Source of the DNA: a virus | Lineage: Duplodnaviria; Caudoviricetes | DNA length: 63,847 nucleotides | Reading direction: 5' to 3' (one strand) | Virus record (IMG/VR): IMGVR_UViG_3300005832_000038 | Span: 1 to 63,847 of that record | Part shown: positions 4,358-26,962 of the stretch, piece by piece | How the letters are laid out: the number at the start of each line of letters is the position of its first letter | Numbering within the stretch: the stretch's first letter is position 1 | Notes under the pieces: model-generated | The model's database searches: none | What the model saw: the letters and a program-made list of their open reading frames with translations, nothing else | Told to the model about the DNA's origin: nothing | Made by a program: the position numbers and the translations under genes

Positions 4358-4706
4358 AGAGATCAAGAAATTGGCGTTCGCAACGGCCAAGGGCGAAGTG
4401 TTCACAAGTGAGATGATTTCTAAGGATGAGGTTGTAACGGTTCTACAAAAAATATTTGTACCGTTGTGGGTGTTGAGCGCGGGGCAGATAGCCGAGATAA
4501 AAGAGTACCAGCCGGTAATGTTCTATGAGTATTTATCGGAAGCGGCCCCACAACAAAGTGTAAATGGTTATCCGATATTTTATTCGATGCGCATGTTGAA
4601 TGCTTCGGAGTTTACCCAGTTTCGACGTTGGGTCAAAGCGTATGAACGGGCAGTGAAAGTAATGCACCAAGTCCTAGATGGCTTGGAAATGGATGAAGGA
4701 GAATGA
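4332..4706 (+). CDS. Conserved phage hypothetical protein
   Basis: YEYLSEAAP..SVNGYPIFYS motif. Confidence 0.6.
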   Translation: MAIRKKTIEEIKKLAFATAKGEVFTSEMISKDEVVTVLQKIFVPLWVLSAGQIAEIKEYQPVMFYEYLSEAAPQQSVNGYPIFYSMRMLNASEFTQFRRWVKAYERAVKVMHQVLDGLEMDEGE

Positions 4707-7460: not shown

Positions 7461-7866
7461 GTTACTTGGTATCGGGGCAGACTTTCACTTTCAGAAATAC
7501 GTAAGAATTTACGGAAATACTTTAGAGGTGAAACATCATTTAACCGCGACGTTTAGCGAAGATCCGAAAGAAGCAGAGTTTGAAGAGGTATTGAAGGCGT
7601 TGGAAGGGGGATTAATTGTGGAATCCCGTAGTGAGATATTAGATACGGCGTTAGAGATTCTCGTTGGGGGCATGGATCCACGGGTTAGGTTTACGCGGTA
7701 TGATGGAAACAGGCCGTTTATCTATTACGATAAATTGGATAATGAGCTAGTGATTAAGGCCTTGGATTACGAATCCGCGAACCGATATTTAAAGATGATA
7801 TTGCGAGAAGTGACAACGATTTCCGAAGAAGGTAATACCGTGGGTACGGAAATATTTACAGAATGA
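7438..7866 (+). CDS. Hypothetical protein upstream of terminase
   Basis: ATGA overlap with terL. Confidence 0.55.
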   Translation: MLKHIRDELLGIGADFHFQKYVRIYGNTLEVKHHLTATFSEDPKEAEFEEVLKALEGGLIVESRSEILDTALEILVGGMDPRVRFTRYDGNRPFIYYDKLDNELVIKALDYESANRYLKMILREVTTISEEGNTVGTEIFTE

Positions 7867-10800
7867 CGCAGCGGGAGCAAATCCATGACGATAAACCTCT
7901 AAGGGTTCAGATTCCCCACGTTCGTATTCCGCCTAAAAAGCCAAAATTACTCGAAGAAAGTACTGAGCCTATCGAAACCCCGGTACAACCGACCGTCCCG
8001 AAAGTTGTCGGGGATATAATCGGGAAACAGCCTATAAATTGGGGTAAAACGACCGCTAAATTGACCAAAGTTAGTTGCGCGTTTACGGCCCAGGAATTGT
8101 TAATGGGGCCTTCCGAACCACCTTACAATGGGAAGTTTTTTATAGGGGATCACCATTTAGCGTGGGATGAACTAATAGCCAAGTACAATCGGTTATGCAT
8201 ACTCGCGCCCAGGGATCACGGGAAGTGCGTACGGGGAAACCATACGATAATAACCGGTAACGGCAGTCGGGTAAAAGCGCAAGACTGGCAAGGCGGCGAG
8301 TTATTGGCGTACGACGTTGAGCGAGCCCGGTACGTGGCCGTACATTGTCCGCCGGTAGTCGAAAACGGGGTAAAGCCTATCTTCGAAATTACGACGGCGA
8401 CGGGCCGCGTGTTGGGCGTCACCGAGGAACACCCATTACTTCAATACCACGGGTGGGTGCACGCAAAAGACATTAAGGTAGGGGATCGTGTCGCGGTAGT
8501 GAACGGTATCGGGGATTTGGGTAAAAGAAAATTAGAAAGCCCGTGGTTACTCGGATTACTCATAGGTGATGGTAGTTTTAGAGCTAAATCTACCGTATCG
8601 ATTACTACCACGTACGCATCGATATTAGAAAATCTAATAACAGAATGCGAAATTCGCGGTTGGCGTTTAACGGGTGAGGGGGTGCATTATCGGATACCAG
8701 TTAAAGGTGTGCCTCATGATAAAAGATGTGATGCGTGGTTAAAGGGGTTGGGTTTATGGGGTAAGCGATCTTCTGAAAAGTTTGTGCCAGAGCAAGTATT
8801 CGAGGCAAGGGATTCTGATATAGCCGAGTTTTTGGCGGGTTATTTTGATGCGGATGGCGGTATCGAAAGAGACGTTATTAAGGCGAGTAGTACGAGTCAC
8901 CAATTACTTAAAGACGTGCAAAGTCTCCTAGCTCGTTTAGGGATTATTTCAGTGGTACGCAAAAAGAAAAAATCCCAATACAAGGGGGAGCTTTACGCTT
9001 TTTTCGAATTAGCCATTAATAACGGGAGTACTGTCCAGTTTCACCGGTGTATTCCGTTGCGAAGTCATAAGGCGCTAGCGCTAATTGACTTGTTGCGGCG
9101 AAATGAGCAAAAAGATGTTTCCAGGGGGAAAAGTTTAAAGGGGCCTGTATTTTGGGATGAGGTGGTAAAGGTAGAAGTTAAACCATCGGAAATGACTTAC
9201 GCTATACAAGTACCGGAATACCATACGTATATATCCGAGGACGTTATAAATCATAATACGTTTTTCTTTGATTTCGCGTATCCGATTTGGAAAGCGATAA
9301 ACAATCCGGGGAAAGTCGGTTTTATATTCTCGGCGACGCAACCGATGGCCGAAAGAATTCTCGGGGATATAAAAGAGGAGTTGGAAAACAACCCGAAACT
9401 AAATTGGCTAGTACCGACTAAAAAGGAACATTGGAGGGTATCCAGTATTAAATGTAGTAACGGGCATAAGATTTACGCACGCGGACTGGGAACCAAAATT
9501 CGAGGGGCTCATCCAATTTGGATCGTAGTCGACGACGCTTTGTCAGACGATACGGCTTATAGCGAGTTAACGCGTAGGAAACAAATTGATTATTTCTATA
9601 CGGCTATAACCAATATGATTACGCCGGGTGGACAAATAATCGTGGTAGGCACCCCGTTCGCGAAAGAGGATTTATACGGGAAGTTAAAAAAGAATCGCGA
9701 GTATAAATTCGTTAAGTACCAGGCGCTAGACGAACGAGGTAAAGCGCTTTGGACTGAACGATATAGTAAGAAAGCGTTAGTGCAGCGTAAAAGGGAAATA
9801 GGTAGTATTCGATTTTCCCGTGAATTCCTTTGTTGTAAGGGAAATACATACGTGGAAACAATCGCCGGGCATGTACCGATTGAAAGCGTAAAAGTAGGTA
9901 CGTTGGTATTAACGCACAAAAATAGGTGGAAGAAAGTAACGCGTGTATTCGAAAGTGATTACTTCGGAAACTTAATACGGATAAAGGATGTTTTAGAAGT
10001 AACCCCGAATCATAACGTGCTCACCCAGGACGGTTGGATAGAGGCGGGTTATTTAACACCTACGGACTTTATAATGTATCCAACGGAACATGGCGAGGAT
10101 TGGATAGAGGTGGTGGATATACAAATAACGTTCCACGAGGGTAAAGTTTACAATTTGGAAGTAGAGGGGGATAATTCTTACATAGCGGATGGTATAGCCG
10201 TACATAATTGCAATCCGATAGATGATAGTTCTAGCTTCTTCCCGAAACGATTATTCCAGGGCGACCCCGTAGAACAATACGGGTTGACACTGGGAATGTC
10301 GAAAGAGTTTTGGGAGGATAAGGGTGTACAAATTTACATGGGCGTGGACTTCGCTATGAGCACGAGTATTCAGGCGGACTATTTAGTTGTTTGGGTAATG
10401 GGGAAAGATTCATTTGGAAATAGGTGGCTAATTGATATTCACAGGCATAAGGGTATGCCTTTTCAGGAGCAATTAAGCCTGATAAATGAGTTAGGGCGGA
10501 AGTACGATCCCGCGTTGATTTACCTCGAAAGTAATCAAATGCAGAGGATATTTGGAGATGAATTAATCAGGACAAGCGACTTGCCTATTACCAAATTTAC
10601 CACCGGAATACAGAAACACTCTTTAGAGAATGGTTTGCCAAGTTTGCGTATTCTCTTGGAAAACGGGAAATTCAGGATTCCGAGGGGGGATGCTAAGAGC
10701 GTGGAGGTGACAAACTTGTGGATCGAAGAGATGGCCAATTTTACCTTTGAAAACGGAAAGTTGTCGAGCGTTGGGGCGCATGATGACATGCCTATGGCCT

Positions 10801-11117
10801 GCTGGATCTGCAATGAGGCAATAAAGAAAGGGGGATTCGCGTTTTCGTTTGGCGACGCAGAAGGGGAACAAATGAGCAGCGAGGAAATCCTAGCCGAGCT
10901 TACGGAAGCCCGATCCGAGCTATTAGGGGGCAAGTTGAAACCGGAACCCGCCAAGGGGAACGGGAACGGGAAGGCGAAACCGGGGAACGGTTCGCAGACT
11001 GTGAAGACTCCGACCAACGGGAACGGGAAGGCGGCAATTAATAGTAATACGTCAGTCAATCTCGTAGACGACAATGATTTACTACATTCCTTGCCGAAAG
11101 TACTGCAATGGTATTAG
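7863..11117 (+). CDS. terL: Terminase large subunit with two inteins
   Basis: Walker A PRDHGK/T, Walker B IVVDD, motif III VVGTP, RNase-H nuclease MGVDFA ... HDDMPMA. Confidence 0.95.
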   Translation: MTQREQIHDDKPLRVQIPHVRIPPKKPKLLEESTEPIETPVQPTVPKVVGDIIGKQPINWGKTTAKLTKVSCAFTAQELLMGPSEPPYNGKFFIGDHHLAWDELIAKYNRLCILAPRDHGKCVRGNHTIITGNGSRVKAQDWQGGELLAYDVERARYVAVHCPPVVENGVKPIFEITTATGRVLGVTEEHPLLQYHGWVHAKDIKVGDRVAVVNGIGDLGKRKLESPWLLGLLIGDGSFRAKSTVSITTTYASILENLITECEIRGWRLTGEGVHYRIPVKGVPHDKRCDAWLKGLGLWGKRSSEKFVPEQVFEARDSDIAEFLAGYFDADGGIERDVIKASSTSHQLLKDVQSLLARLGIISVVRKKKKSQYKGELYAFFELAINNGSTVQFHRCIPLRSHKALALIDLLRRNEQKDVSRGKSLKGPVFWDEVVKVEVKPSEMTYAIQVPEYHTYISEDVINHNTFFFDFAYPIWKAINNPGKVGFIFSATQPMAERILGDIKEELENNPKLNWLVPTKKEHWRVSSIKCSNGHKIYARGLGTKIRGAHPIWIVVDDALSDDTAYSELTRRKQIDYFYTAITNMITPGGQIIVVGTPFAKEDLYGKLKKNREYKFVKYQALDERGKALWTERYSKKALVQRKREIGSIRFSREFLCCKGNTYVETIAGHVPIESVKVGTLVLTHKNRWKKVTRVFESDYFGNLIRIKDVLEVTPNHNVLTQDGWIEAGYLTPTDFIMYPTEHGEDWIEVVDIQITFHEGKVYNLEVEGDNSYIADGIAVHNCNPIDDSSSFFPKRLFQGDPVEQYGLTLGMSKEFWEDKGVQIYMGVDFAMSTSIQADYLVVWVMGKDSFGNRWLIDIHRHKGMPFQEQLSLINELGRKYDPALIYLESNQMQRIFGDELIRTSDLPITKFTTGIQKHSLENGLPSLRILLENGKFRIPRGDAKSVEVTNLWIEEMANFTFENGKLSSVGAHDDMPMACWICNEAIKKGGFAFSFGDAEGEQMSSEEILAELTEARSELLGGKLKPEPAKGNGNGKAKPGNGSQTVKTPTNGNGKAAINSNTSVNLVDDNDLLHSLPKVLQWY
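8226..9257 (+). mobile_element. Intein 1 (344 aa) with LAGLIDADG homing endonuclease, inserted in Walker A
   Basis: Starts at Cys after HGK; block B VTEEHP; LGLLIGDGS and LAGYFDADGG; ends HN followed by Thr. Confidence 0.93.
9831..10208 (+). mobile_element. Intein 2, mini-intein (126 aa)
   Basis: REFL|CCKGNTYVET ... VTPNH ... VYNLEVEGDNSYIADGIAVHN|C; no endonuclease. Confidence 0.9.
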
Positions 11118-13517: not shown

Positions 13518-16500
13518 ATGACTATTGAAGCACTAGACGAGTTTGCGAAGGGCGGCCCGTACTACGGACCACGAGGCGGTAAATGGAAAGATCCACAACA
13601 CAAAATTCCATGGGATGACAAAGAGCCCAAAGGCGGGGGCAAAAAGGCCGCGGTAGATAAAAGCGTTAAGGCCTCTATTCTGGGCATGTTGTCGGAGCAT
13701 CGAGCTATTGATTTAACGAGGTTATCAGTATCCGACGCCGCGAAAAAGGCGATAAAAGAAGCGTTGCCAGCGTTGAAGGCCGAAGGACTAATAGAGGATG
13801 CTAAGATCCAAACGATGTCGGGTTCTATCCCAGGTTTTAAGTTAACTCCAAAGGGAGCTAAGGCGTCTCAAGGTCTGGACAAAGAAGTAAAAGAAGAGAA
13901 GAAACAGGCCGATCCCAGGCAGCTAGGCCTAGACTTTACCATACCGGCCAAGAAACCGGAGCCGAAACAAGAGCCCCAAACGAAAGCCGAAAAGGCTAAG
14001 GCGAATAAAGAAGCGAAGCTTCGCACAGCTATTTCGACGGAAGACGGGTTGAAAGAAGTGTTCGCCAAGTTTGCCTTGAAACGCGGCAATCAAAGTTTTT
14101 ACGCGGATGATCTCCCCAAATTGATAGGTGTGGCCAAAGAAGATAGCGCGGGATTGGTTCAAAAGTTGGAAGACAAGGGATTAATCACGAGCAAGAAATT
14201 TCAGATAGGCCCGAAAGGTAGCGCGCCCACGAAGCTTTACCAGGTAGCAGATAAAGGCCGGGAAGCGAGGGAGGATTATTTCACGGGAAAGACGTCGAAG
14301 CGAAAAGACAAAGAGGCCCCACAAAAGAGAACCAGCGTGCAAAACTATGCAATGGGGAGTTTGCTTGATCGGGACAATATGTCAGTTAATGCGTTGGTTA
14401 ACGCCTCGGGTAAATCCGAGGCGGAAATAAAAGAGGCCATGGGGGGATTGGTCAAGCAGGGTTTAGTAAAAGAGACGCAGGTTTCTACCGGTGGGAAGTA
14501 CAAAGATCCGGGATACGCGATAACAGATAAAGGGAAAAGTCAGTTAAAAGCCGAGCGCGAAAAAACTTATAAGAAAATGGAAACGGGACAAAAGCCCGCG
14601 GCGAAAAAACAAGAGGCCAGCGAGAAGCCAGTTTCGCCGGAACCGAAAGTGAGCACGCCTACTTATAGCGAGCTACGGGCGGGTAAATTGTTGGGGAAAG
14701 ATCCCGCTACCGGTAACGAATTTAAGCGTGTTGGGGATACGGTGTGGTCTGTTAGTAGTCATGGTATTACTAATAGGGGTTCCTATGCTGATTTTGAGAA
14801 ACAAGTGAAAGAGGGGAAGTATCATTCTCGGATTAAATTTACCGGTCTAGATGAGGGGGAAAAGAAAAAACAAGTACTCGAGAGTCCACAATACGACGTG
14901 GATTTCAGCGAGGGGTTTAAAGCGGGTAAGGCGGCCCACGATAAGGATCCGTATACCGATGCTTCGCACGCCAAGGCAGCCTATGAAAAGGTGAGCGGTA
15001 AACACGGTAGTTATTACGAAGACGGGTTCAAGGCGGCGATTGATCACAAAAGAGGCCTATACGCCGGGGATAATTTGAAGATTGCTCGACATTTGGGTTT
15101 GGTGCCTCCGCCTACTTTGGATTGGAAACCGGAAGACGAGCCCTTGAACATCCAAAAATCAATAGACACGCTCGATGACTTCGCGAAAGGTGGCCCTTAT
15201 TACGGGCCTCGAGGGGGGAAATGGGCAGATCCGCAGCACAAAATCCCGTGGCAAGAGTCAAAGAAGAAACCCAGTAAAAAGAAGCCTACGGAAAAGAAGC
15301 CCGAGAAAGAAACGTCATTGCGTCATTGGGTGTCCACAGTAGACGTGGGGTTGCCTGCCCAAACCATAAACAAGTACAAAGGCCCGAACGGATATACCCC
15401 AGAGCGTAAAAGGCTACATTCGGCGATTATCAGTAAATTTGTTGATCACGTTCCTAGCGTGCCTAGCGATCAAAGGCCTGTGGCTATCGTAATGATGGGA
15501 GGCGGGGGAGCTGGTAAAGGAACCATCGTGCGACACGTTATGGGCGATGAGCACGATTTCGTGAACGTCAATTCCGATGATTGCAAAGAGGAGTTGCCGG
15601 AATATCAGCAGGCCTTGGATCTCGGCAAGAAAGACGGGAAAACTATCAGCGCGAGGGACGCCGCATGGATGGCTCACGAAGAGAGTTCGGATATCGCCAA
15701 GGACATATTGCAAATAGCCATCGCAGATCGCAAAAATCTGATTATGGACGGCACGGGTTCAAATTCTGATAAGTATCAGGGCAAAATCCAAAAGCTCAAA
15801 GACGCCGGGTATCATGTGCGCGTAATGATGCCTCACATTTCGTTAGACGAGGCGAAGCGGCGCGCCGACATGCGGGCGGAGCGCTCAGGGCGCTATGTGC
15901 CCCACGAAATACTCGAACAGGCGCACCATTTAATCCCAGGCAATTTCGAAAAAATTGCGCGGACAGCCGATGAGTTTGCGTTGTTCGATAATTCGGGAAG
16001 GCCTCCAAGACCGGTTTGGTCGTTTAACGGGGAAAAGGAAACCGTGTTAGATCCTAAATTCGTAAACGATTTTAAGAAATTGGGGAAGGAAAGGCACGCC
16101 GTAGCACGCGCAAAAGGTTGGATGAAGTCATTACAGGAATGGCTTGAGATGAGAAAGGCGGAGGGGATGAAAGTGTCACTATCGATGGAAGACATGTTGA
16201 AACGAATGGAAACAAAGCGCGACGAGGTTTTAGATACCGCATCGATGCTCGACGATTTCGCGCCCGAAATGGAAAAGCATTTAGAGGACATGGCGAAAAA
16301 ATCAATGGGAGAAAACGAAATGAACGGAATAGACGCACTGGATGAGTTTGCGAAGGGTAACGGGGCCATGCCTTCGGGGGAGCCGAAACTAGGCGGTAAC
16401 GGGGAAGAACAAGGCGGCAAGCTCGCCGGGGTAGGAAAAACCGGGGGTTCGGGCGACTCGGCGAGCGGTCCGCCTATCGCCGCACCAAACCCCACGAAGG

Positions 16501-17012
16501 ACAAACTATCAGAAGACGATGCGGAAGACGAAAAAGCCATGAAGGAGCACAAGAAGCCAATCGAGAAGACGGCGAAGGCCTCGAAGAGTTTCCGCGACAC
16601 AACCCCGCAGGGGATTCGGGACGCGTACGCGCTCGAACACGCCCAGTACGTATCCAAGCTGAAAAAGGGTGAACCCGACGAGCGGGTGGGAATACCGGGG
16701 GTTCCTAGGCAGCAACCGGAGCCGGAGCCGATGGCAAAATCTCGAGAGTGGGGATATGATCGGGAATCTCGCGTGGTGTATTCCACGGGGACGGATGAAT
16801 TCACGGCGAAAATGGCCAAGTCGGATTCATTCTATCACGGGGTATCAGCTCCCAGATTGTCACCTCACATCGGGATAATGCACATCGTACGGTGCAAGGC
16901 GTGCGGGGACAAGATGTCCAAGGCGTTGACTGCGTGTCCACATTGTGGAGAGGGTACGGCCGAGCGTGGGGTGGTTTACGTGGACGAGGGCCGGTACGTA
17001 GACGATAAATAA
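13518..17012 (+). CDS. Multidomain cargo polyprotein: 3 wHTH-like modules, zeta-toxin-like P-loop kinase, C-terminal Zn ribbon
   Basis: Three LD[ED]FAKG leaders; MGGGGAGKGT, NSDDCK, HEESS, IMDGT, LFDNS zeta motifs; CKAC..CPHC. Confidence 0.8.
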   Translation: MTIEALDEFAKGGPYYGPRGGKWKDPQHKIPWDDKEPKGGGKKAAVDKSVKASILGMLSEHRAIDLTRLSVSDAAKKAIKEALPALKAEGLIEDAKIQTMSGSIPGFKLTPKGAKASQGLDKEVKEEKKQADPRQLGLDFTIPAKKPEPKQEPQTKAEKAKANKEAKLRTAISTEDGLKEVFAKFALKRGNQSFYADDLPKLIGVAKEDSAGLVQKLEDKGLITSKKFQIGPKGSAPTKLYQVADKGREAREDYFTGKTSKRKDKEAPQKRTSVQNYAMGSLLDRDNMSVNALVNASGKSEAEIKEAMGGLVKQGLVKETQVSTGGKYKDPGYAITDKGKSQLKAEREKTYKKMETGQKPAAKKQEASEKPVSPEPKVSTPTYSELRAGKLLGKDPATGNEFKRVGDTVWSVSSHGITNRGSYADFEKQVKEGKYHSRIKFTGLDEGEKKKQVLESPQYDVDFSEGFKAGKAAHDKDPYTDASHAKAAYEKVSGKHGSYYEDGFKAAIDHKRGLYAGDNLKIARHLGLVPPPTLDWKPEDEPLNIQKSIDTLDDFAKGGPYYGPRGGKWADPQHKIPWQESKKKPSKKKPTEKKPEKETSLRHWVSTVDVGLPAQTINKYKGPNGYTPERKRLHSAIISKFVDHVPSVPSDQRPVAIVMMGGGGAGKGTIVRHVMGDEHDFVNVNSDDCKEELPEYQQALDLGKKDGKTISARDAAWMAHEESSDIAKDILQIAIADRKNLIMDGTGSNSDKYQGKIQKLKDAGYHVRVMMPHISLDEAKRRADMRAERSGRYVPHEILEQAHHLIPGNFEKIARTADEFALFDNSGRPPRPVWSFNGEKETVLDPKFVNDFKKLGKERHAVARAKGWMKSLQEWLEMRKAEGMKVSLSMEDMLKRMETKRDEVLDTASMLDDFAPEMEKHLEDMAKKSMGENEMNGIDALDEFAKGNGAMPSGEPKLGGNGEEQGGKLAGVGKTGGSGDSASGPPIAAPNPTKDKLSEDDAEDEKAMKEHKKPIEKTAKASKSFRDTTPQGIRDAYALEHAQYVSKLKKGEPDERVGIPGVPRQQPEPEPMAKSREWGYDRESRVVYSTGTDEFTAKMAKSDSFYHGVSAPRLSPHIGIMHIVRCKACGDKMSKALTACPHCGEGTAERGVVYVDEGRYVDDK

Positions 17013-19600: not shown

Positions 19601-22600
19601 ATGTTGTTTACCGCAGCACAGCTACACGAAATAAAAGAAATCATAAAGGACTACCACGACGCGTTCATTATCAACGCGGTAGACGACAAAGCATTACCAG
19701 AAGAAATCATAAAACGGTTAAAGGAAAAGGGCCTAATCGATCCCCAAGTCAATTCGATAAAAGACGCCTATTTGTACGGGCAAGTATTGGCCATGCTCGA
19801 GACCAAGCAAATAGCCGATATGTCGTATCCAGAATTCAAGGCGTACGTGAAGAAAAACCCGATACCGCTAACAGCGGTCGAGCGCCAGGCGGCACAAATG
19901 GCGGCGTTGCACGCGGGCCAGTATTGCCAGGGTTTAGGGAACAAGATCGGGGCAACAGTAGGTAGTGATTTAATTGAGGCGGATTCAAAATTGCGTGCAC
20001 GATTAGAAACGGATATTCGCACGGCGACCGCCGAAAACATAGTGAAACGCGAAACCGTAAAACAGCTTAAAACTGATTTGGGTTGGAAAACAAAGGACTG
20101 GGCGCGGGACTGGGATAGAATCGCGGTAACAGAAAAACAAACGGCGATGCAAGAGGGCGTAGCCGACGGGATACGCAAAGAGCACGGGGGAGAGGCCTAC
20201 GTGTCCAAGATCCCGCAACCGGGCGCTTGTAACCATTGCCTACGCCTTCACGTTGGTCCAGACGGGAACCCAAGAATTTTCAAGCTCTCTACCCTGGAAA
20301 ATAACGGAACTAATTTTGGGAAGAAAGCGCAAGACTGGGATCCGGTAGTGGGGGCAGTTCATCCCAATTGTCAATGTACATTAGTGAGGGTTCCCAAGGG
20401 TTGGGGGTACGATGAAGAGGGAATTCTAGTACCAGGGGGAAAAGGCGGAGTCAAGTACGAAGACGAGCAAGCGATGTCCCGAGCAGTGAAGGCCGAAGAT
20501 GATCTACAGAAGTCGTTAGCGCAATTTGACATTCAATTTACGAAATCCGGCTCGAATGGCTTGGGGAGTAACATTGTACTTGGCGGCGATTTCTTGGAGC
20601 GTAACGCCTTGGTGGTAAAGGGTGATTGCTTTTTCTCTTGGCCAGAGGCGGCGCGAACGATTATTTCTAGTTGGGCGTGTGATCGGGAGACCATGATTAA
20701 GAAAGACTTTTCGGACGCCTGTTTGCGTCGCTCCCAATCTACGGGCAATTTCACCGATGCATTGACCTTCATTCCAGAGGAGAACAGCTTTATCCAGATC
20801 CCACATGCGAGGACCCCAATGTTCCCTACGGTGTTCCGTGGGTGTTTTGATCTCCAAGTTGGAGATCGCGTTATTAAGGCCGTTCCCGTCTTTGTGGTGG
20901 ACCAACTCGGAGGAAAGGAGTGGGCGGCGCAAATGGCGCTCCATAATAACCCTATGTTCAAGGCGTTGTCGGCCATTATCCCAGATAAGCCGGTATTGTG
21001 TTTTGGCATTAGGGAATTGTCTGATGTGTCCGCCTTTAAATCGCATGAAGCCCAAGATATACTTGGAGACAATAAAAGGCAAGGGATTGCTAATACTAAA
21101 CCAAAAACCGGGGAAATGGGCAAGTCGGGAATCAAGCTCGTACTCCCGGTGGAAGACACCTTATTGAAGGCGGGGAAAGTCGGCGGGAAGTACATCCGGC
21201 GGGTGCCGTATACCGACAAAAACGGCAAACAACGATACCGGTATTTTTACGCAGAGTCAGCGGTTGCGCGGGACGTGAAGGCGGGGGAATCAATCCGATT
21301 AGGCGAAGATTTGGTTCAAGTCGAGAAGGTGGAACCGAACGGCACGGTGCACTTGCGCTCGAAAAACCAAACGTTCGTTATAAAGGGCCACCAATGGTCT
21401 ACCTTTGTTTCAGAATTTTACGGCCAGGCTTATTTCAAGTGGGCCGAAAAACGAGCTATGCAATCCGTCAACGCGGTATTGCAGCACGTTCCACGGGAAT
21501 TGCTCGGGGAGCTAAAGGGATCTACTGATAAGGCTCGACTAGCCGATCTGAAAAAGCGCGTACCGGACGTTTACACGAAACTGCAAAAGTCTTTCTCCAG
21601 GGCCGGGGTGAACCCTTTCCGAGCAAAAGAGGTGATCGGGGCCGCGCTCGAGCGGAGGGGTTGGGAAGTGGAGGCCAGGGCGGCGGTAATCGGAGACGTG
21701 ATTACCAAGCGTAACAATGATTACCGCACAACAATTCGGGCAGCGGAAAACCTCGCGGGCGGGAAAGTCGTTAAGCTCGGCCATGTCGCAGCGGTAACCG
21801 AGATTAGACGGGAAATGCAAGCGGTCGAGCCGGAGCCCACGAAAGAGCCACCAAAGAAACGGGCGAAGGGTAAAAAGAGGGCAAAGGAAAAGCCCAAAGA
21901 AGAGCCTAAAGATCCTATCGCCGAGGTGGCCGAGAAGGCCGAAAAAGAAATCTCAAAGTTGAGCGCTTTGCTCGAACAAGCTCGTGGAGGGACGGCCGAG
22001 GACGCGGCGCAAACCCTGGCAACCGCTCTTTCATCGGAATCGATTCAAAAACTTTTGTTGATTGCGAAGGCTTTCCCAGGCCTCGCCGACAAGGCGATAG
22101 AACCGGCCCGCGAAGTCATGCTCCAAGTGCCCAGCGTAGCCACGGTCAGCGAGCCGAAAGCGGTAGGTAGCTCGACAACGGTATTTGTTGCCGGGGAAGC
22201 AGGCCAGGCTAAGGGCCTCACAGCGCGTTACAAATTAATGGAAGCCGACGACGTGATAGCGAGTCACGATCCACGGTCGTTTAACCAAAGGAAAGATTAT
22301 CCCGAGGGAATTCAGGAACGCGCCTATCATCGAGATAAAATGGAACAAGCAAAAGTCATGCGCAACGCGCAAAGACTATCGCCGGAATTCGTGGTCAATA
22401 CCAATCCCGACGCTGTGAATGGTCCGCCGATTATGAGCGCGGACGGGGTAGTGCTCGGGGGTAACAGCCGAACGATGTCTATGCAGTTGGCGTACGCGAA
22501 ACACCCCGAGAAAGCAGACCAGTTGCGGGCATACTTGGCCGAGCACGCGCACGAAACAGGATTCTCGCCGGAAGACGTGAAGGCTTTCAAAAACCCGATC

Positions 22601-24976
22601 CTGGTACGAGTAGTTGACGAGGGTGGGAATACCAAAACAGAAAAACAGCTCCTCGTACGGCAAATGAATGAATCGTTCACGCAGAGCATGGACCCCAGGA
22701 CAATGCAGGTTGCCATGGGTAGAAAATTAACCGATACGGCGGTAGAAGCACTGGGTGAGGCCATGGACGCCGACGAAACATTGGGCGCGTTTTTGGGGAA
22801 GAAAAAAGCAGATCCGTTTATTACCGAGCTTCGAAACGTGGGTTTGATAGACCAACGCAACGCTAATCAGTATTTCGATAAAGACGGCACGATGAACGCG
22901 GACGGGAAAACCTTGGTTTCCCGTGTCCTGGTAGGCCGGATGATTGGTGACGCTGATTTATTAAGCGCCACAAGACCGTCAATTATAGAAAATCTAGCGC
23001 AAAGCGTGCCGTACATGGCACAAGCCCAGAAAAACGGCAAAGGGTACGATTTAGGCGATGATATACGGGTATCCTTGGACGCCTACAATTACCTGCAAAA
23101 TCAAATTGATAGAGGAACGGCAAAGGCATTAAAGCCTGATATGTCTTCGCAGGACTTCAAAAACTTGTTTGCCCAGATGGGCCTTGGGGCCGTCGAAGAG
23201 GAACACCCCGTAACGAAAAATTCCCGAGCGATGAGTTTACTCGAAGTAATGATTAGGCGTCCGGGCAAAAATCAAATTTCAAAACTGTTTAGGGGCTATG
23301 CTGCGGTAGCGAAAGAAAATCCCGAAGGCCAGGCGGGTTTATTGGGTGCGGCGCGTACACCTATCGAAGTATTCAACGAGGTAGTTCAAAGGCACCTAAA
23401 AAGCACCGGACCAAAGAAAGCGAAACCGACGGAAACCCCGGAGCAAGAAGCGGCGGGGAGTTTGTTTATGAGTGTAGAGCCCAGTCGACCACTTAGGCAA
23501 CCGTCATTCGCAGTCGATAGCCTTAGAAAGGCCGGGCCTTTTATTGGTCCGCGTGGGGGTAAATGGGCGGACGCCAAAATGACGATCCCCTGGAAAGAGG
23601 AAAAGAAATCCCCGTTAATTGGGTTGAAATTAGAGATTAAACCCCACGAAAAAATGGGCATGTACGACGTTACGTTCCATGTAGTGGACGCGAAAGACGG
23701 CAAGGTTCGTCTTTCGAAGGATAAGGACGGGGAATTCGGGCCATGGGTTCCCGAGGAGTCTTTGTCTCATCTAAAAAATGACTTAGAGGGTAAAGTTGAT
23801 TTACCGGTAAGGTCGAAAAATGAAACCGTAAATGCAGTGCTCGACGGCAAAGCGGAATTTTTGGGGAAGGGTGACGACGGGTTAGCTTTTCGCGTAGGCG
23901 ATAAAGTTGTGAAGGTATCAACGCCCGTGCCGTATCATCCAGAAAATAATATGTATTTAACGCCGGAAAAAGCGGTGGATCGCTTAAGAAAGCAAGCAGA
24001 AGTAGGCAACGAATTGGCGGACATAAAAGGGGTACAACGATCCGAGTTCATTTCGGGCCACGGTAAGGGGTTTCAAATAAAAGATTGGGTAGAGATACCG
24101 AAGAAATTCACACGCGAACAATTAGACCAGATTCAAAAAACGGTTATCGAGATACACAAACGAGGGTACTCGATAAACGATACCATCCAGCCAGGGTTAG
24201 ATAAAAACGGTGAACCGGTTTTGTTCGATATTGGCAAGGCGGACAAAGCGCGTGGTACGGGAATGATGTCAGATAAAGAATCTGATATGAGCAATTTGTC
24301 ATTATTGTACCGAGATAGCGGGGAGCATTTTGTTAGGTTGGACGTAGACAAAACAAAGCAAGCTTGGCAACATTTCGAAGGTATGTTGAAGCATTATTTG
24401 GAAACAGAATCATTTGATTACGCACGAAAGAAATTAGATAAAGCCGTAGCAAAGAGGGAAAAAGATATTCGAGCAAAGTACAAAGGGAAAGAGCTAAAAG
24501 CAGAGCTGGATCTGCTAGACTTTGAAAAAGACGATTTGATGTTCGATATTGAGCACGCGGAAAAGAAGGCGGGGAAGCCCGAGCTTACCAAGGGACTGAA
24601 CGCGACGATAGCGACGGCGGGTACGTACTCCGGGGACAAGTCGCCGGGCCCAGGTTTGGGTGTGAACTACGCAATCAAAACGCCCTCGAAAAAGAAGCCC
24701 AAGAGAAAGCAGATTAAGGATGAGGACGATCCCACGGGGATGAAAAGGGCGCTGAAAAACCCGAATCCTAGAGCTACGCAAACCGTGACTATCGATAAAG
24801 CTACTTACACCGGTTTCAGGGGGGTAAATACCGTACACAAATACGTCCTACCGGAACAAGCCCGCCGGGATGGTATCGCCGATGAAATTTCGAGAAACCG
24901 GGGACACCTTGAACGGGAAATCGAGCGCCACCAAACGCCGGGAAACAGGGTGAATATTAAACGGGAGCAAGAGTAA
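19601..24976 (+). CDS. MuF (phage head morphogenesis) polyvalent polyprotein: MuF, antisense-HNH spacer, helical region, ddrB-type ParB-like domain, kinase-like domain
   Basis: RIAVTE, ACNHC..HPNCQC (MuF); SHD..QER..GPPI..GVVLGGNSR (ParB-like); LGKGDDGLAF..VVKV..DIG (kinase fold). Confidence 0.8.
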   Translation: MLFTAAQLHEIKEIIKDYHDAFIINAVDDKALPEEIIKRLKEKGLIDPQVNSIKDAYLYGQVLAMLETKQIADMSYPEFKAYVKKNPIPLTAVERQAAQMAALHAGQYCQGLGNKIGATVGSDLIEADSKLRARLETDIRTATAENIVKRETVKQLKTDLGWKTKDWARDWDRIAVTEKQTAMQEGVADGIRKEHGGEAYVSKIPQPGACNHCLRLHVGPDGNPRIFKLSTLENNGTNFGKKAQDWDPVVGAVHPNCQCTLVRVPKGWGYDEEGILVPGGKGGVKYEDEQAMSRAVKAEDDLQKSLAQFDIQFTKSGSNGLGSNIVLGGDFLERNALVVKGDCFFSWPEAARTIISSWACDRETMIKKDFSDACLRRSQSTGNFTDALTFIPEENSFIQIPHARTPMFPTVFRGCFDLQVGDRVIKAVPVFVVDQLGGKEWAAQMALHNNPMFKALSAIIPDKPVLCFGIRELSDVSAFKSHEAQDILGDNKRQGIANTKPKTGEMGKSGIKLVLPVEDTLLKAGKVGGKYIRRVPYTDKNGKQRYRYFYAESAVARDVKAGESIRLGEDLVQVEKVEPNGTVHLRSKNQTFVIKGHQWSTFVSEFYGQAYFKWAEKRAMQSVNAVLQHVPRELLGELKGSTDKARLADLKKRVPDVYTKLQKSFSRAGVNPFRAKEVIGAALERRGWEVEARAAVIGDVITKRNNDYRTTIRAAENLAGGKVVKLGHVAAVTEIRREMQAVEPEPTKEPPKKRAKGKKRAKEKPKEEPKDPIAEVAEKAEKEISKLSALLEQARGGTAEDAAQTLATALSSESIQKLLLIAKAFPGLADKAIEPAREVMLQVPSVATVSEPKAVGSSTTVFVAGEAGQAKGLTARYKLMEADDVIASHDPRSFNQRKDYPEGIQERAYHRDKMEQAKVMRNAQRLSPEFVVNTNPDAVNGPPIMSADGVVLGGNSRTMSMQLAYAKHPEKADQLRAYLAEHAHETGFSPEDVKAFKNPILVRVVDEGGNTKTEKQLLVRQMNESFTQSMDPRTMQVAMGRKLTDTAVEALGEAMDADETLGAFLGKKKADPFITELRNVGLIDQRNANQYFDKDGTMNADGKTLVSRVLVGRMIGDADLLSATRPSIIENLAQSVPYMAQAQKNGKGYDLGDDIRVSLDAYNYLQNQIDRGTAKALKPDMSSQDFKNLFAQMGLGAVEEEHPVTKNSRAMSLLEVMIRRPGKNQISKLFRGYAAVAKENPEGQAGLLGAARTPIEVFNEVVQRHLKSTGPKKAKPTETPEQEAAGSLFMSVEPSRPLRQPSFAVDSLRKAGPFIGPRGGKWADAKMTIPWKEEKKSPLIGLKLEIKPHEKMGMYDVTFHVVDAKDGKVRLSKDKDGEFGPWVPEESLSHLKNDLEGKVDLPVRSKNETVNAVLDGKAEFLGKGDDGLAFRVGDKVVKVSTPVPYHPENNMYLTPEKAVDRLRKQAEVGNELADIKGVQRSEFISGHGKGFQIKDWVEIPKKFTREQLDQIQKTVIEIHKRGYSINDTIQPGLDKNGEPVLFDIGKADKARGTGMMSDKESDMSNLSLLYRDSGEHFVRLDVDKTKQAWQHFEGMLKHYLETESFDYARKKLDKAVAKREKDIRAKYKGKELKAELDLLDFEKDDLMFDIEHAEKKAGKPELTKGLNATIATAGTYSGDKSPGPGLGVNYAIKTPSKKKPKRKQIKDEDDPTGMKRALKNPNPRATQTVTIDKATYTGFRGVNTVHKYVLPEQARRDGIADEISRNRGHLEREIERHQTPGNRVNIKREQE
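20516..21046 (-). CDS. HNH endonuclease with two C-terminal HTH domains, nested antisense in the MuF gene
   Basis: EHRVIMERHLRRPL..VHHKDGNGLNNAISNL..EH (HNH_3); IGEIARRLGAT and LQEIAAKYNVT; own promoter. Confidence 0.9.
   Translation of the reverse strand: MRFKGGHIRQFPNAKTQYRLIWDNGRQRLEHRVIMERHLRRPLLSSELVHHKDGNGLNNAISNLEIKTPTEHRREHWGPRMWDLDKAVLLWNEGQCIGEIARRLGATQTGVRKVFLNHGLPITRPTRNNRSRRLWPREKAITLYHQGVTLQEIAAKYNVTPQAIRAGFRKLNVKLR
21054..21082 (-). promoter_or_regulatory. Sigma70-type promoter for the antisense HNH gene (likely leaderless mRNA)
   Basis: Minus strand reads TTGCCT-N17-TATCTT-N7-ATG. Confidence 0.6.
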
Positions 24977-25317: not shown

Positions 25318-26130
25318 ATGAATTTTGATTTCGAAGTACCAGTAAGTTTTTTCCAAAAAGCAGAGGCGGACCAGGGTAGACAAAGACGTATCGGCGGGAT
25401 CATTTCGTGCGAAACGCGGGATAGACAAAAAGAGGTTATCCTAGCTAAAGGCCTAGAACTAAACGATTTTCTAAGCAACGGTTGGTTCAATGACAACCAT
25501 TCTAAGAAAACCGTTGATATTTTGGGTTATCCCGAATTGACGCGCTACGTGGAAAAGGGTTCGCAACTCCCAGACGGGCGTATGGCCAAGGCCAACGGGC
25601 ATTGGGTGGAAGGCTATCTTCTCGATACGCCGGAAGCCGACAAGGTGTGGGAGCTAGGCAAAGCACTGCAAAAGACGCATCGACGTTTAGGTTTTTCCGT
25701 CGAGGGAAAAATCCTAAGACGTGAAGGCGAAGACAAGCGGATCATAGCGAAAGCGATGGTACGTAACGTCGCCATTACGAACTGTCCAGTTAATACCGAC
25801 TCACGTATGGAAATACTCGCGAAGAGTTTAGCGGCCATGGAGCAGGCCGAACCAAACGGGCTCGAGAAAACGCTTGGTATGGGTGATTGCTCGAGCAATG
25901 AATCCCCGGTAGGCGTGAAAACTGGTATGGGCGCGGGTCAAGTCTTGGCCGAAGAGGATTTGGAACAAGACGTAAAGGACCAAAACGAGAAAAAGAAAAA
26001 GAAGACAAAGAAGTCTTTAACAGCAAATGAGGCATTCGGCTACGTAAAAGCCCGTTTACCGAATGCTACAGACGAGCAAATCGGGCGATTGTTAACCTTG
26101 ACCAGCCGTGCAAAACGGCGGGTTGATTAA
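25318..26130 (+). CDS. Prohead (capsid maturation) protease, HK97/herpes-like fold
   Basis: DRQKEVI..G, NDNH, LGFSVEG, VAITNCPVN; upstream of scaffold and MCP. Confidence 0.88.
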   Translation: MNFDFEVPVSFFQKAEADQGRQRRIGGIISCETRDRQKEVILAKGLELNDFLSNGWFNDNHSKKTVDILGYPELTRYVEKGSQLPDGRMAKANGHWVEGYLLDTPEADKVWELGKALQKTHRRLGFSVEGKILRREGEDKRIIAKAMVRNVAITNCPVNTDSRMEILAKSLAAMEQAEPNGLEKTLGMGDCSSNESPVGVKTGMGAGQVLAEEDLEQDVKDQNEKKKKKTKKSLTANEAFGYVKARLPNATDEQIGRLLTLTSRAKRRVD

Positions 26131-26146: not shown

Positions 26147-26962
26147 ATGTCTCAGGCACAAAGGGACGAGCTTTTGAAAGCTAAATCGGCCCCGAAGGAC
26201 GAAGAGGACGCGGAAGATGAGGGACAAGACGGGGGCGAAGACGAGGGCGAGGATATGGAAGAGTCTTCCGATCTGACAGAAGACGATCTCGAAAAGTCTT
26301 TGGTGCGTTTGCAGAGTCTTGTTGACGCCGAGGATCCTGTTTCGAGAAAACAATTTTTGCTCGAAAAGGCTCAAAAAGAAACACTCGAGAAATCCGAGCA
26401 AAAGGAATTGTTCGAGCTGCTCGGCCAGGGCGAATCCGAGAAGGAAAGCTTTGTTGAAGAGGTGACCAAAGGCCTCGAAGAAAACGACACGCTGCAAAAA
26501 GCGCTCGACGTCAGCGATTTTCTTCAAGAGCAACACGCCGAACTGGTCAAGTCTCTGGGTATGCTCGCCGAGTACCAGGAAAGATCCGACTCGCGCCAGC
26601 ACGCATTCAACTTGATTCTGGCCAAGGCAGTCGCCGACGAGGGTCGGTTGATCAAGAGTATCGCCGAACGAATTTCGGTAATCGAGGAACAACCTGTACG
26701 CGGGCCGAAAAGCAAGGGCGTAGCCGCGCTCGAGAAATCTTTCGCCGGAACCCCTCCCCCATCAAACCAGCTTGGAAAATCGGATGCGCTTAACGGCCTC
26801 ATGGGATTGCTTGAAGAGAGCATGACCAAGGGCATGGAAGGCCGAACCGAGGAGGGGATCGACATCGCCAGCGCTATCACGAAATGCGAATTGTTCGGCA
26901 CAGTCGATCCCAGGCTAGCATCCAAAATTCGGGAAAAAAGAAACGGCGCGACAACTCACTAA
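26147..26962 (+). CDS. Capsid scaffolding protein
   Basis: Acidic and helical, between protease and MCP; ~12 [LVM]xK[SAG] motifs; AAGGAG RBS before ATG 26147. Confidence 0.75.
   Translation: MSQAQRDELLKAKSAPKDEEDAEDEGQDGGEDEGEDMEESSDLTEDDLEKSLVRLQSLVDAEDPVSRKQFLLEKAQKETLEKSEQKELFELLGQGESEKESFVEEVTKGLEENDTLQKALDVSDFLQEQHAELVKSLGMLAEYQERSDSRQHAFNLILAKAVADEGRLIKSIAERISVIEEQPVRGPKSKGVAALEKSFAGTPPPSNQLGKSDALNGLMGLLEESMTKGMEGRTEEGIDIASAITKCELFGTVDPRLASKIREKRNGATTH

Follow-up and report, generated by a model that had tools for sequence, protein, structure and literature searches.

How can the gene for a giant virion protein of a phage remain open when an intact endonuclease gene lies within it on the opposite strand? 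We addressed this question at a locus of a virus of the Caudoviricetes (IMG/VR record IMGVR_UViG_3300005832_000038), in which the window, that is, the whole stretch of 63,847 nucleotides that was analysed, carries such an arrangement. The original prediction, made from the sequence alone, was that an HNH endonuclease gene lies antisense and codon-aligned inside a MuF-type polyprotein, between two putative protease sites, and that its antisense filler would be cut out by the phage maturation protease, as a third way, besides RNA and protein splicing, for a homing endonuclease to be neutral inside a gene. As shown below, what had been observed is confirmed, whereas the proposed interpretation is supported only in part. 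The features of the locus are collected in Table 1.

Table 1. Features of the locus, with positions in the window.
Positions	Strand	Feature	Evidence
19601..24976	+	MuF-type polyvalent virion protein ORF, 1791 aa, open across the element	ddrB-ParB (Pfam) at residues 872-1005; collinear with L002/L003; phrog_115 minor head protein on residues 129-292
19601..20515	+	MuF-like N-terminal module, ending in the conserved E-x-x-L-x-K-S motif (LQKS = 20504-20515)	E299, L302 and K304 invariant in 6 of 6 aligned sequences; motif statistics
20516..21085		Mobile element of about 190 codons that replaces the InPase module	Homology to insert-free L002/L003 stops at 20515 and resumes near 21084
20516..21082	-	ORF, 188 aa from TTG	
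20516..21046	-	HNH_3 plus two HTH, predicted homing-endonuclease CDS, 176 aa; ATG at 21046-21044, TAA at 20518-20516	Pfam HNH_3, 27.9 bits (cut-off 24.8), and HTH_23, 27.4 bits; phrog_59, HNH endonuclease, E 1.5e-15
21047..21082	-	HNH upstream region: TTGCCT (21082-21077), 17 nt, TATCTT (21059-21054), 7 nt, ATG; no Shine-Dalgarno; same geometry in L099	Weak: 8 of 12 consensus positions; not listed by the promoter scan, which needs 9
20516..21082	+	Mirror-frame filler, polyprotein residues 306-494; no family match, no confident fold, more hydrophobic than the rest of the protein	0 Pfam or PHROG families; AF2 pLDDT 44.7; GRAVY -0.07 against -0.64
21161..21172	+	LLKA motif (residues 521-524), putative protease site downstream of the filler	Inference only
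25318..26130	+	Prohead serine protease (Peptidase_S78)	Profile matches
26147..26962	+	Scaffold protein with 10 L-x-K-[SA] motifs	Motif counts

We first confirmed the register of the two genes. Since (20516-19601) mod 3 = 0, the codons of both strands coincide, and the HNH stop codon is the plus-strand codon directly after DDLQKS. In this register only three sense codons, TTA, CTA and TCA, give a stop on the other strand, and none of the 19 Leu and 4 Ser codons of the 176-aa CDS is one of them. In the window's other genes TTA and CTA make up 36% of Leu codons and TCA 12.5% of Ser codons, so that the probability of finding no such codon was 1.1e-4 or 1.9e-4 in two calculations. Within the HNH gene itself, A-ending codons are 24 of 28 in AAR/GAR/CAR but 0 of 6 in TTR (Fisher 1.6e-4), and 15 of 67 in other four-fold families but 0 of 17 in CTN+TCN (P 0.03). 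The other two plus frames across the segment carry 4 and 17 stops. However, 3 of 714 stop-free runs in the window's own sense genes exceed 189 codons, and thus the window alone is unusual rather than decisive. All 55 ORFs of 100 aa or more in our greedy gene set lie on the plus strand, and the motifs FTKS, VIKA, MFKA and AFKS, which had been noticed in the filler, are indeed there.

To decide the matter, we turned to related loci, denoted here by number (L002 and so on). Of 17 non-redundant relatives, 16 have zero aligned antisense stops. From the codon usage of each locus, and after dropping L109 for too little flanking sequence, 2.64 of 16 would be expected and 15 of 16 were observed (Poisson-binomial P 1.8e-17). 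Inside the same genes, A-ending codons are 202 of 1105 in other four-fold families and 184 of 370 in AAR/GAR/CAR, but 0 of 313 in CTN+TCN and 0 of 36 in TTR (Fisher 3e-24 and 1.7e-10, respectively). For comparison, of other HNH ORFs of 350 aa or less in the retrieved loci, 14 of 128 have zero such stops, and two of these 14 are short members of this family. The mirror frame is also continuous with the host: in 12 of 17 members it runs on for at least 95 codons on both sides, inside ORFs of 430 to 2373 codons, and L025 and L110 add two more, giving 14 of 19 loci. Read-through as a fusion is nevertheless not universal, since in L007/L008, L108, L109 and L009 the mirror frame is open but not fused to the host ORF. 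L107, with 6 aligned stops and a host ORF that ends at the element, serves as a built-in negative control, as there the codon avoidance is gone.

These data bear on the possibility that the open frame is a chance by-product of the codon bias of the nuclease gene, and that the polyprotein is really two genes, the second restarting near ATG 21116. In favor of this, long stop-free runs do occur in the window, the chance of zero stops in GC-rich loci is 0.1-0.4 per locus, and five family loci are not fused. However, no stop ends the first part, so ribosomes must read through, and the M of GEMGK is also present in L002/L003, which lack the element. Together with the family statistics and the continuity of the frame, this makes the two-gene reading very unlikely.

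We then asked which of the two frames is under selection. In the 14 closest pairs, dN/dS in the HNH frame is 0.08-0.43 where it could be computed, with codon position 3 the most variable, which indicates purifying selection, whereas the mirror frame gives 0.55-1.6. Amino acid identity is always lower in the mirror frame than in the HNH frame, for example 0.51 against 0.82. Residues H50, H51, N55, N58, N59, N63, H72 and H76, which cover the His...Asn...His/Asn motif of HNH (His-Me finger) endonucleases, are invariant in 4 of 4 aligned members, their catalytic role being inferred. A PDB sequence search with the HNH protein gave no hit at E<=0.01. As for the filler, AF2 gave pLDDT 44.7 and pTM 0.15, although this rests on 16 sequences, so that a low score is weak evidence. 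In the L024 model, the two InPase halves reach pLDDT about 90 around a low-confidence insert of about 170 residues. It could still be argued that both strands encode functional proteins, the filler being a real domain: the mirror frame stays open even where it is not fused (L008, L108, L109, L009, L179), in L008 and L108 an ATG or GTG in that frame overlaps the stop of the upstream gene, and one pair (L099/L100) has a mirror-frame dN/dS of 0.55. Given the relaxed mirror frame and the lack of any family match or confident fold, we consider this unlikely. The fairly hydrophobic character of the filler, however, is not what one expects of a harmless linker.

Next, we examined where the element is inserted. 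A point missed in the original prediction is that it does not sit in a linker: in this window it replaces a whole InPase domain that homologs carry at this place. InPase (PF18823) ends 0-16 residues before the filler in 12 loci and is split by it, in one InPase loop, in 2, counted by locus rather than by insertion event, with L111 and L112 showing no InPase and L009, L109 and L179 left out of this test. Presence and absence vary among close relatives, since L002/L003, whose MuF is 84-85% identical, lack the element that the window carries, and L006 (596 aa) lacks the element that L005 (776 aa) carries, as seen in a protein alignment. Inverted and direct repeats at the ends of the element gave nothing convincing, with no sign of an invertible segment or a target-site duplication. 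An alternative is that the HNH is a domesticated phage gene, for example a packaging-associated one, as it lies in the head and packaging module and HNH proteins that assist terminases are known (PMC11855218). Its absence from the closest relatives at this locus, its recurrence at one target domain in otherwise different polyproteins, and its two HTH units, which fit site-specific DNA binding, make this doubtful.

The host protein fits the class of phage polyvalent proteins with an InPase domain (Iyer et al., 2017, PMC5512222): it is a very large protein with a MuF-like N-terminus and a ddrB-ParB domain, portal, protease, scaffold and capsid genes lie beside it, and relatives carry InPase, DarA_C, ART-PolyVal and LPD domains. 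Pfam Phage_Mu_F itself is only weak, with E 0.22 in L006, but reaches 53 bits in the host ORF of L024. In the passages of that paper that we retrieved antisense HNH genes are not described, and HNH occurs once in its text.

Removal of the element by splicing, or by translational bypass, would make the open frame incidental. Group I introns are hard to detect by sequence, and a very divergent intron cannot be excluded on sequence alone. However, an Rfam search at E<=1 gave only an unrelated sRNA hit elsewhere, the RNA fold z-score is -0.16, and the element is filled by the HNH CDS plus about 40 nt, which leaves no room for a ribozyme core. Moreover, a spliced element would not need to stay stop-free, or to keep a length divisible by three, over saturated synonymous divergence (pS 0.54-0.86). 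We therefore regard removal at the RNA level as very improbable. Likewise, Pfam detected no Hint domain in the polyprotein, although it finds two in this window's terminase; the junctions read S/L and Q-G/I (the slash marking the junction), and the whole insert is accounted for by the HNH gene. In two public metatranscriptome runs, each containing 5-6% of the sampled words, we recovered only one 224-nt contig (21097-21320) and one 179-nt contig (19774-19952); neither covers the element, so they say nothing about strand, splicing or expression.

We then evaluated excision by the prohead protease, which would add to, rather than exclude, the explanation given below. The flanking L-x-K-[SA] motifs are credible protease sites: the motif occurs 25 times in 18187 aa of window proteins, of which 10 are in the 271-aa scaffold (0.44 expected), 2 in the protease, 2 in the capsid protein and 5 in this polyprotein. 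LQKS (302-305) and LLKA bracket the filler, and L099, L005, L006 and L004 have a PLEKS or PLKKS motif after the module. However, the same two sites bracket the InPase module in relatives without the element, so they did not evolve for it. In most of the loci designated site B the filler is attached to InPase with no recognizable site between them, and in L024 and L104, as in entries P0014 and P0009, it lies inside the InPase fold. Thus, excision is plausible in this window, yet tentative, as the cleavage specificity is inferred from motif counts alone, and it cannot be the general way in which the element stays neutral.

Based on these results, and with fairly high confidence, we propose that the segment is a mobile HNH homing-endonuclease gene whose family specializes on the InPase module of MuF/polyvalent virion-protein genes. 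In this view the gene is always on the strand opposite to the host gene and in most cases inserted codon-for-codon in frame; as TTA, CTA and TCA all have synonyms, selection on the phage would have removed them without constraining the nuclease. Ribosomes on the host mRNA would then read straight through, making a filler of about 180-190 aa, unconserved and probably unfolded, and the downstream effector modules would stay attached to the MuF packaging module. The nuclease would be made from its own antisense transcript, as suggested by Shine-Dalgarno sequences or promoter-like leaderless starts upstream of the start codon. The arrangement in this window would be derived, from an insertion directly after the InPase C-terminus, as in L102, followed by in-frame loss of InPase. 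The window is, however, a metagenomic contig estimated at 59% complete, and having lost InPase the phage could be defective. What the sequences themselves show is the HNH gene, its purifying selection, its codon-aligned register, the maintained absence of stops and the lack of detectable splicing features; read-through, the antisense transcript, DNA cleavage, homing into insert-free alleles and proteolytic processing are all inferred, in the absence of RNA or protein data.

Precedents exist, and 'a third way' overstates the novelty. First, in the ShiLan domain of mycobacteriophage DNA methylases (Arsenault, Gosselin and Gogarten, 2025, PMC11855218), an HNH gene is hidden in an insertion that adds no stop to the host frame, without intein or intron features, with a patchy distribution among relatives and a product predicted to loop out. 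There, the HNH lies on the same strand in the third frame, whereas here it is on the opposite strand and codon-aligned, and the host is the InPase module of polyvalent proteins rather than a methylase; the words antisense, reverse, opposite strand and complement do not occur in that text. Second, inteins with an antisense-encoded homing endonuclease (LAGLIDADG, VSR-like) have been described (bioRxiv 10.1101/2025.01.02.630785, citing Gorbalenya 1998 and Gogarten 2002). There too the host ORF stays open across the endonuclease gene, but the mirror sequence is removed by protein splicing, while here no Hint domain is detected and there is no room for one. An antisense HNH is not listed there, although the supplements of these two papers may list further hidden or antisense endonucleases. 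Third, free-standing homing endonucleases may split an essential or useful host gene without intron or intein (fragmented nrdA, PMC3045599; 'fractured genes', PMC2677866). L008, L108 and L107 resemble this arrangement, but in the window and 13 other loci the host gene is read through rather than split.

If our reading is correct, the locus shows how a selfish nuclease gene can occupy a coding region at almost no cost with no splicing of any kind, needing only a codon-aligned antisense register and synonymous purging of three codons, and it gives a clean natural example of selection acting on one strand purely to keep the other translatable. It also identifies the InPase module as a homing target, and suggests that polyvalent proteins tolerate large junk insertions, which bears on how they gain and lose modules. 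It is tempting to speculate, as slightly more likely than not, that mirror-frame homing endonucleases are a distinct and widespread lifestyle, hidden systematically by gene callers that report only the long ORF, and that the loose, protease-processed architecture of polyvalent proteins is what makes this niche permissive. Related HNH genes also sit antisense inside terminase inteins (L094 and others).

Finally, we assessed how common the pattern may be. Among GenBank phages, a DNA search found no match, a tblastn search with the window HNH found nothing at E<=1e-8, and one with the L105 HNH found only distant relatives, about 32% identical in the first-listed rows that we inspected, one of which, in a Flavobacterium phage, is an ordinary free-standing gene on the same strand; we thus found no cultured example. 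In contrast, a profile of the fillers finds 4200 protein clusters at E<=1e-3, 424 at <=1e-10 and 39 at <=1e-30. Hundreds to thousands of predicted giant phage proteins appear to contain about 180 residues of non-protein filler, with an equal number of nuclease genes unannotated. A crude InPase-signature pattern matched 12 of the top 150 hits, but was probably too strict, since Pfam on 12 sampled proteins found InPase next to or split by the filler in 5, with 4 carrying other polyvalent-protein domains. Of the top 150, 125 are 300 aa or longer and 99 are 1000 aa or longer.

The window, an IMG/VR viral contig of 63.8 kb estimated to be 59% complete, encodes all 55 ORFs of 100 aa or more in our greedy gene set on the plus strand. 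Its one credible minus-strand gene encodes 188 aa from TTG and 176 aa from ATG 21046, and it matches Pfam HNH_3 (27.9 bits, cut-off 24.8), several HTH models, and PHROG HNH-endonuclease families (best E 1.5e-15). This gene lies inside the 1791-aa plus-strand ORF, with coinciding codon boundaries, since (20516-19601) mod 3 = 0, and its stop codon is the plus-strand codon directly after DDLQKS. None of its 19 Leu and 4 Ser codons is TTA, CTA or TCA, although in the rest of the window these codons make up 36% of Leu and 12.5% of Ser codons, which gives P = 1e-4 to 2e-4. Thus, the original prediction of an intact, codon-aligned antisense HNH gene that leaves the polyprotein frame open was correct in every detail that we could check. 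On its own, however, this observation is not overwhelming, as three stop-free runs longer than 189 codons occur in the window's own genes. The coordinates of this and other features are collected in the table below.

Coordinates of the antisense HNH gene, its host ORF and additional features in the window and in related loci
Sequence	Coordinates	Strand	Feature
Window	20516..21082	minus	HNH plus HTH gene
Window	19601..24976	plus	MuF-type host ORF, 1791 aa
Window	20515 and near 21084		Points where homology to insert-free L002/L003 stops and resumes
Window	7863-11117	plus	Large terminase with two inteins, 1084 aa
Window	13518-17012	plus	Second polyvalent protein, 1164 aa
Window	23500-23600	plus	Variant of the repeated motif, in the MuF polyprotein
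L008	4500-4507 and 3939-3943	host strand	Junctions of the unfused mirror ORF
L108	near 4525-4531		Junction of the unfused mirror ORF
L094	452-3976	minus	ORF containing an antisense HNH gene
L094	2974-3498	plus	HNH ORF
L032	2987-5224	minus	746-codon ORF containing an antisense HNH gene
L032	3839-4489	plus	HNH ORF of a different subfamily
L107	2865-3467	minus	201-codon open frame in a different antisense register

What the original prediction missed is that the element replaces a domain. Five MuF relatives were found in viral contigs, and four of these loci (L002, L003, L004 and L006) carry, after the conserved E-x-x-L-x-K-S/A motif, a domain of about 125-135 aa, which Pfam identifies as InPase, PF18823 (129 bits in L003 and 118 bits in L006). 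The window has no InPase, either here or elsewhere on the contig, and its homology to L002/L003 resumes at IANT, which directly follows the InPase C-terminus KRW in L002. The relative L005, in contrast, keeps InPase and also carries a homologous HNH gene antisense just after it, with its host ORF open across the insert as well; this host protein has 776 aa, against 596 aa for the insert-free L006.

To establish whether this arrangement is a family property, we searched viral, metagenome and genome contigs with an alignment of four HNH proteins, followed by a local tblastn search, which gave 17 non-redundant full-length members. First, 16 of the 17 have no aligned antisense stop, the exception being L107, which has six. 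Second, in 12 of the 17 the mirror frame, that is, the codon-aligned frame of the opposite strand, continues for at least 95 codons on both sides, inside host ORFs of 430 to 2373 codons. Third, two shorter variants with one HTH (L025 and L110) do the same, which makes 14 of 19. From each locus's own codon usage, 2.64 zero-stop genes are expected among 16, whereas 15 are seen (Poisson-binomial P 1.8e-17; L109 was dropped for lack of flanking sequence).

The cleanest control is internal to the genes. In the 16 stop-free genes, A-ending codons are 202 of 1105 in other four-fold families and 184 of 370 in AAR/GAR/CAR, but 0 of 313 in CTN+TCN and 0 of 36 in TTR (Fisher tests, 3e-24 and 1.7e-10). 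In L107, where the host ORF ends at the element, these codons are used normally (5 of 20 and 1 of 2). This member also has an open frame in a different antisense register across the HNH, which at 55-59% GC may be due to chance. Among other HNH ORFs in the retrieved loci, 14 of 128 are stop-free in the aligned antisense frame.

Nei-Gojobori estimates on the 14 closest pairs were then used to determine which strand is selected. In the HNH frame dN/dS is 0.08-0.43 where it could be computed, and codon position 3 is the most variable, whereas in the mirror frame dN/dS is 0.55-1.6. Moreover, mirror-frame amino-acid identity is always lower than HNH-frame identity, for example 0.51 against 0.82 for L109/L009. 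Therefore, the nuclease is the conserved protein, and the filler encoded by the mirror frame is constrained only not to stop. This filler matches no Pfam or PHROG family; with a 16-sequence alignment AF2 gives pLDDT 44.7 and pTM 0.15; and it is more hydrophobic than the rest of the polyprotein (GRAVY -0.07 against -0.64).

With regard to the target, Pfam analysis of the host ORFs places InPase 0-16 residues before the filler in L099, L005, L023, L102, L103, L105, L106, L025, L110, L008, L108 and L107. In L024 and L104 the filler sits in the loop after the V-x-V-x-Q strand inside InPase, and an AF2 model of L024 folds both InPase halves at pLDDT about 90 around a low-confidence insert of about 170 residues. 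No InPase was seen in L111 and L112. The window equals an insertion directly after KRW, as in L102, followed by in-frame loss of InPase.

Fusion to the host ORF is not universal. In L007/L008, L108, L109, L009 and L179 the mirror frame is open for about 200-230 codons but is not continuous with the host ORF. In L008 and L108 an ATG or GTG, respectively, in the mirror frame overlaps the stop codon of the upstream InPase-bearing gene, and in L108 the host stop and the HNH stop share the palindrome TTAA. This hints that the mirror ORF may be translated on its own in these loci, possibly with translational coupling through it. As for expression of the nuclease, the window and L099 share the geometry TTGnnn, 17 nt, TATnnn, 7 nt, ATG, with no Shine-Dalgarno, and L005 is similar but spaced differently, whereas most other members have a Shine-Dalgarno-like purine run before the ATG. 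The promoter-like site of the window is weak and is not listed by a consensus scan.

The possibility that the element is removed by splicing found no support. Rfam gives nothing relevant, the RNA does not fold better than shuffled sequences (z -0.16), there are no convincing flanking repeats, and the element is filled by the HNH gene plus about 40 nt. In addition, a spliced element would not need to stay stop-free while synonymous sites saturate (pS 0.54-0.86). No Hint domain is detected, although Pfam finds two inteins in the large terminase of this window, one with a LAGLIDADG endonuclease and the other a mini Hint domain. Other HNH plus HTH genes lie antisense, in a non-aligned frame, inside ORFs of about 600-1175 codons (L094, L080, L041, L057, L061 and L073, and the related L081, L087, L084, L078, L096 and L098). 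In the first six, the ORF reads by eye alone as a putative terminase large subunit, with the HNH within an intein-like insert that begins with Cys after the Walker A 'GGNR' and ends 'HHN' before 'SGKT'. If these tentative identities are correct, the central region of the intein is the mirror read-through of an HNH gene; the accounts of non-canonical inteins that we consulted do not list an antisense HNH.

The original prediction further proposed that the filler is cut out by the phage maturation protease, an interpretation that our data support only in part. The window encodes an S78 prohead protease, a scaffold protein and a capsid protein just downstream. The motif L-x-K-[SA] occurs 25 times in 18187 aa of window proteins, ten of them in the 271-aa scaffold, against 0.44 expected, and LQK|S and LLK|A bracket the filler. 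The motif is therefore a reasonable guess for the cleavage site, and in this phage the filler may be released as a fragment of about 220 aa. However, the same sites bracket InPase in relatives without the element, and elsewhere the filler is joined to InPase or lies inside it. Protease excision would thus be a local consequence of the modular architecture, and not the principle that makes the element tolerable. Taken together, the gene, its codon signature, the selection on its frame and its association with InPase rest directly on the sequence analyses, whereas translation of the filler, its proteolytic release, and the expression and activity of the nuclease are inferred from sequence.

Other sequences in the window may mark module boundaries. 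The second polyvalent protein has a Zeta_toxin/AAA_33 kinase-like domain, and a motif of the form L-D-[ED]-F-A-K-G-G-P-Y-Y-G-P-R-G-G-K-W...I-P-W occurs in it twice, with a partial third copy, while a variant occurs in the MuF polyprotein.

Full-text literature searches found no report of an antisense HNH in a polyvalent protein or next to InPase, but close precedents exist. The ShiLan domain is a same-strand, third-frame HNH in a read-through insertion of a methylase (PMC11855218); inteins can carry LAGLIDADG or VSR-like endonucleases encoded antisense (bioRxiv 10.1101/2025.01.02.630785); and InPase and polyvalent proteins have been defined previously (Iyer et al., 2017, PMC5512222). Hidden endonuclease genes of this general sort are therefore already known, and what distinguishes the present case is that it is intein-less, antisense, codon-aligned, and backed by a family-wide codon signature. 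An HNH of a different subfamily, with Cys-rich tails, also lies codon-aligned antisense in an ORF of L032 that does not look like a polyvalent protein.

Finally, to assess prevalence, a profile of 16 fillers was searched against 1.84 billion protein representatives, which found 4200 proteins at E<=1e-3, 424 at <=1e-10 and 39 at <=1e-30. Of the top 150, 125 are 300 aa or longer, 99 are 1000 aa or longer and 70 are 2000 aa or longer. Of 12 proteins that we scanned, five have InPase next to or split by the filler, four carry other polyvalent-protein domains (LPD38, ART-PolyVal, LPD37/LPD1, GGDEF) and three have no hit. That an HNH gene lies on the other strand in these cases is inferred from the protein sequences alone. 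Some giant proteins among these matches, namely P0011 (3126 aa), P0030 (4927 aa), P0028 and P0023, match the filler profile in two or three separate stretches, and thus may carry more than one mirror-frame HNH.
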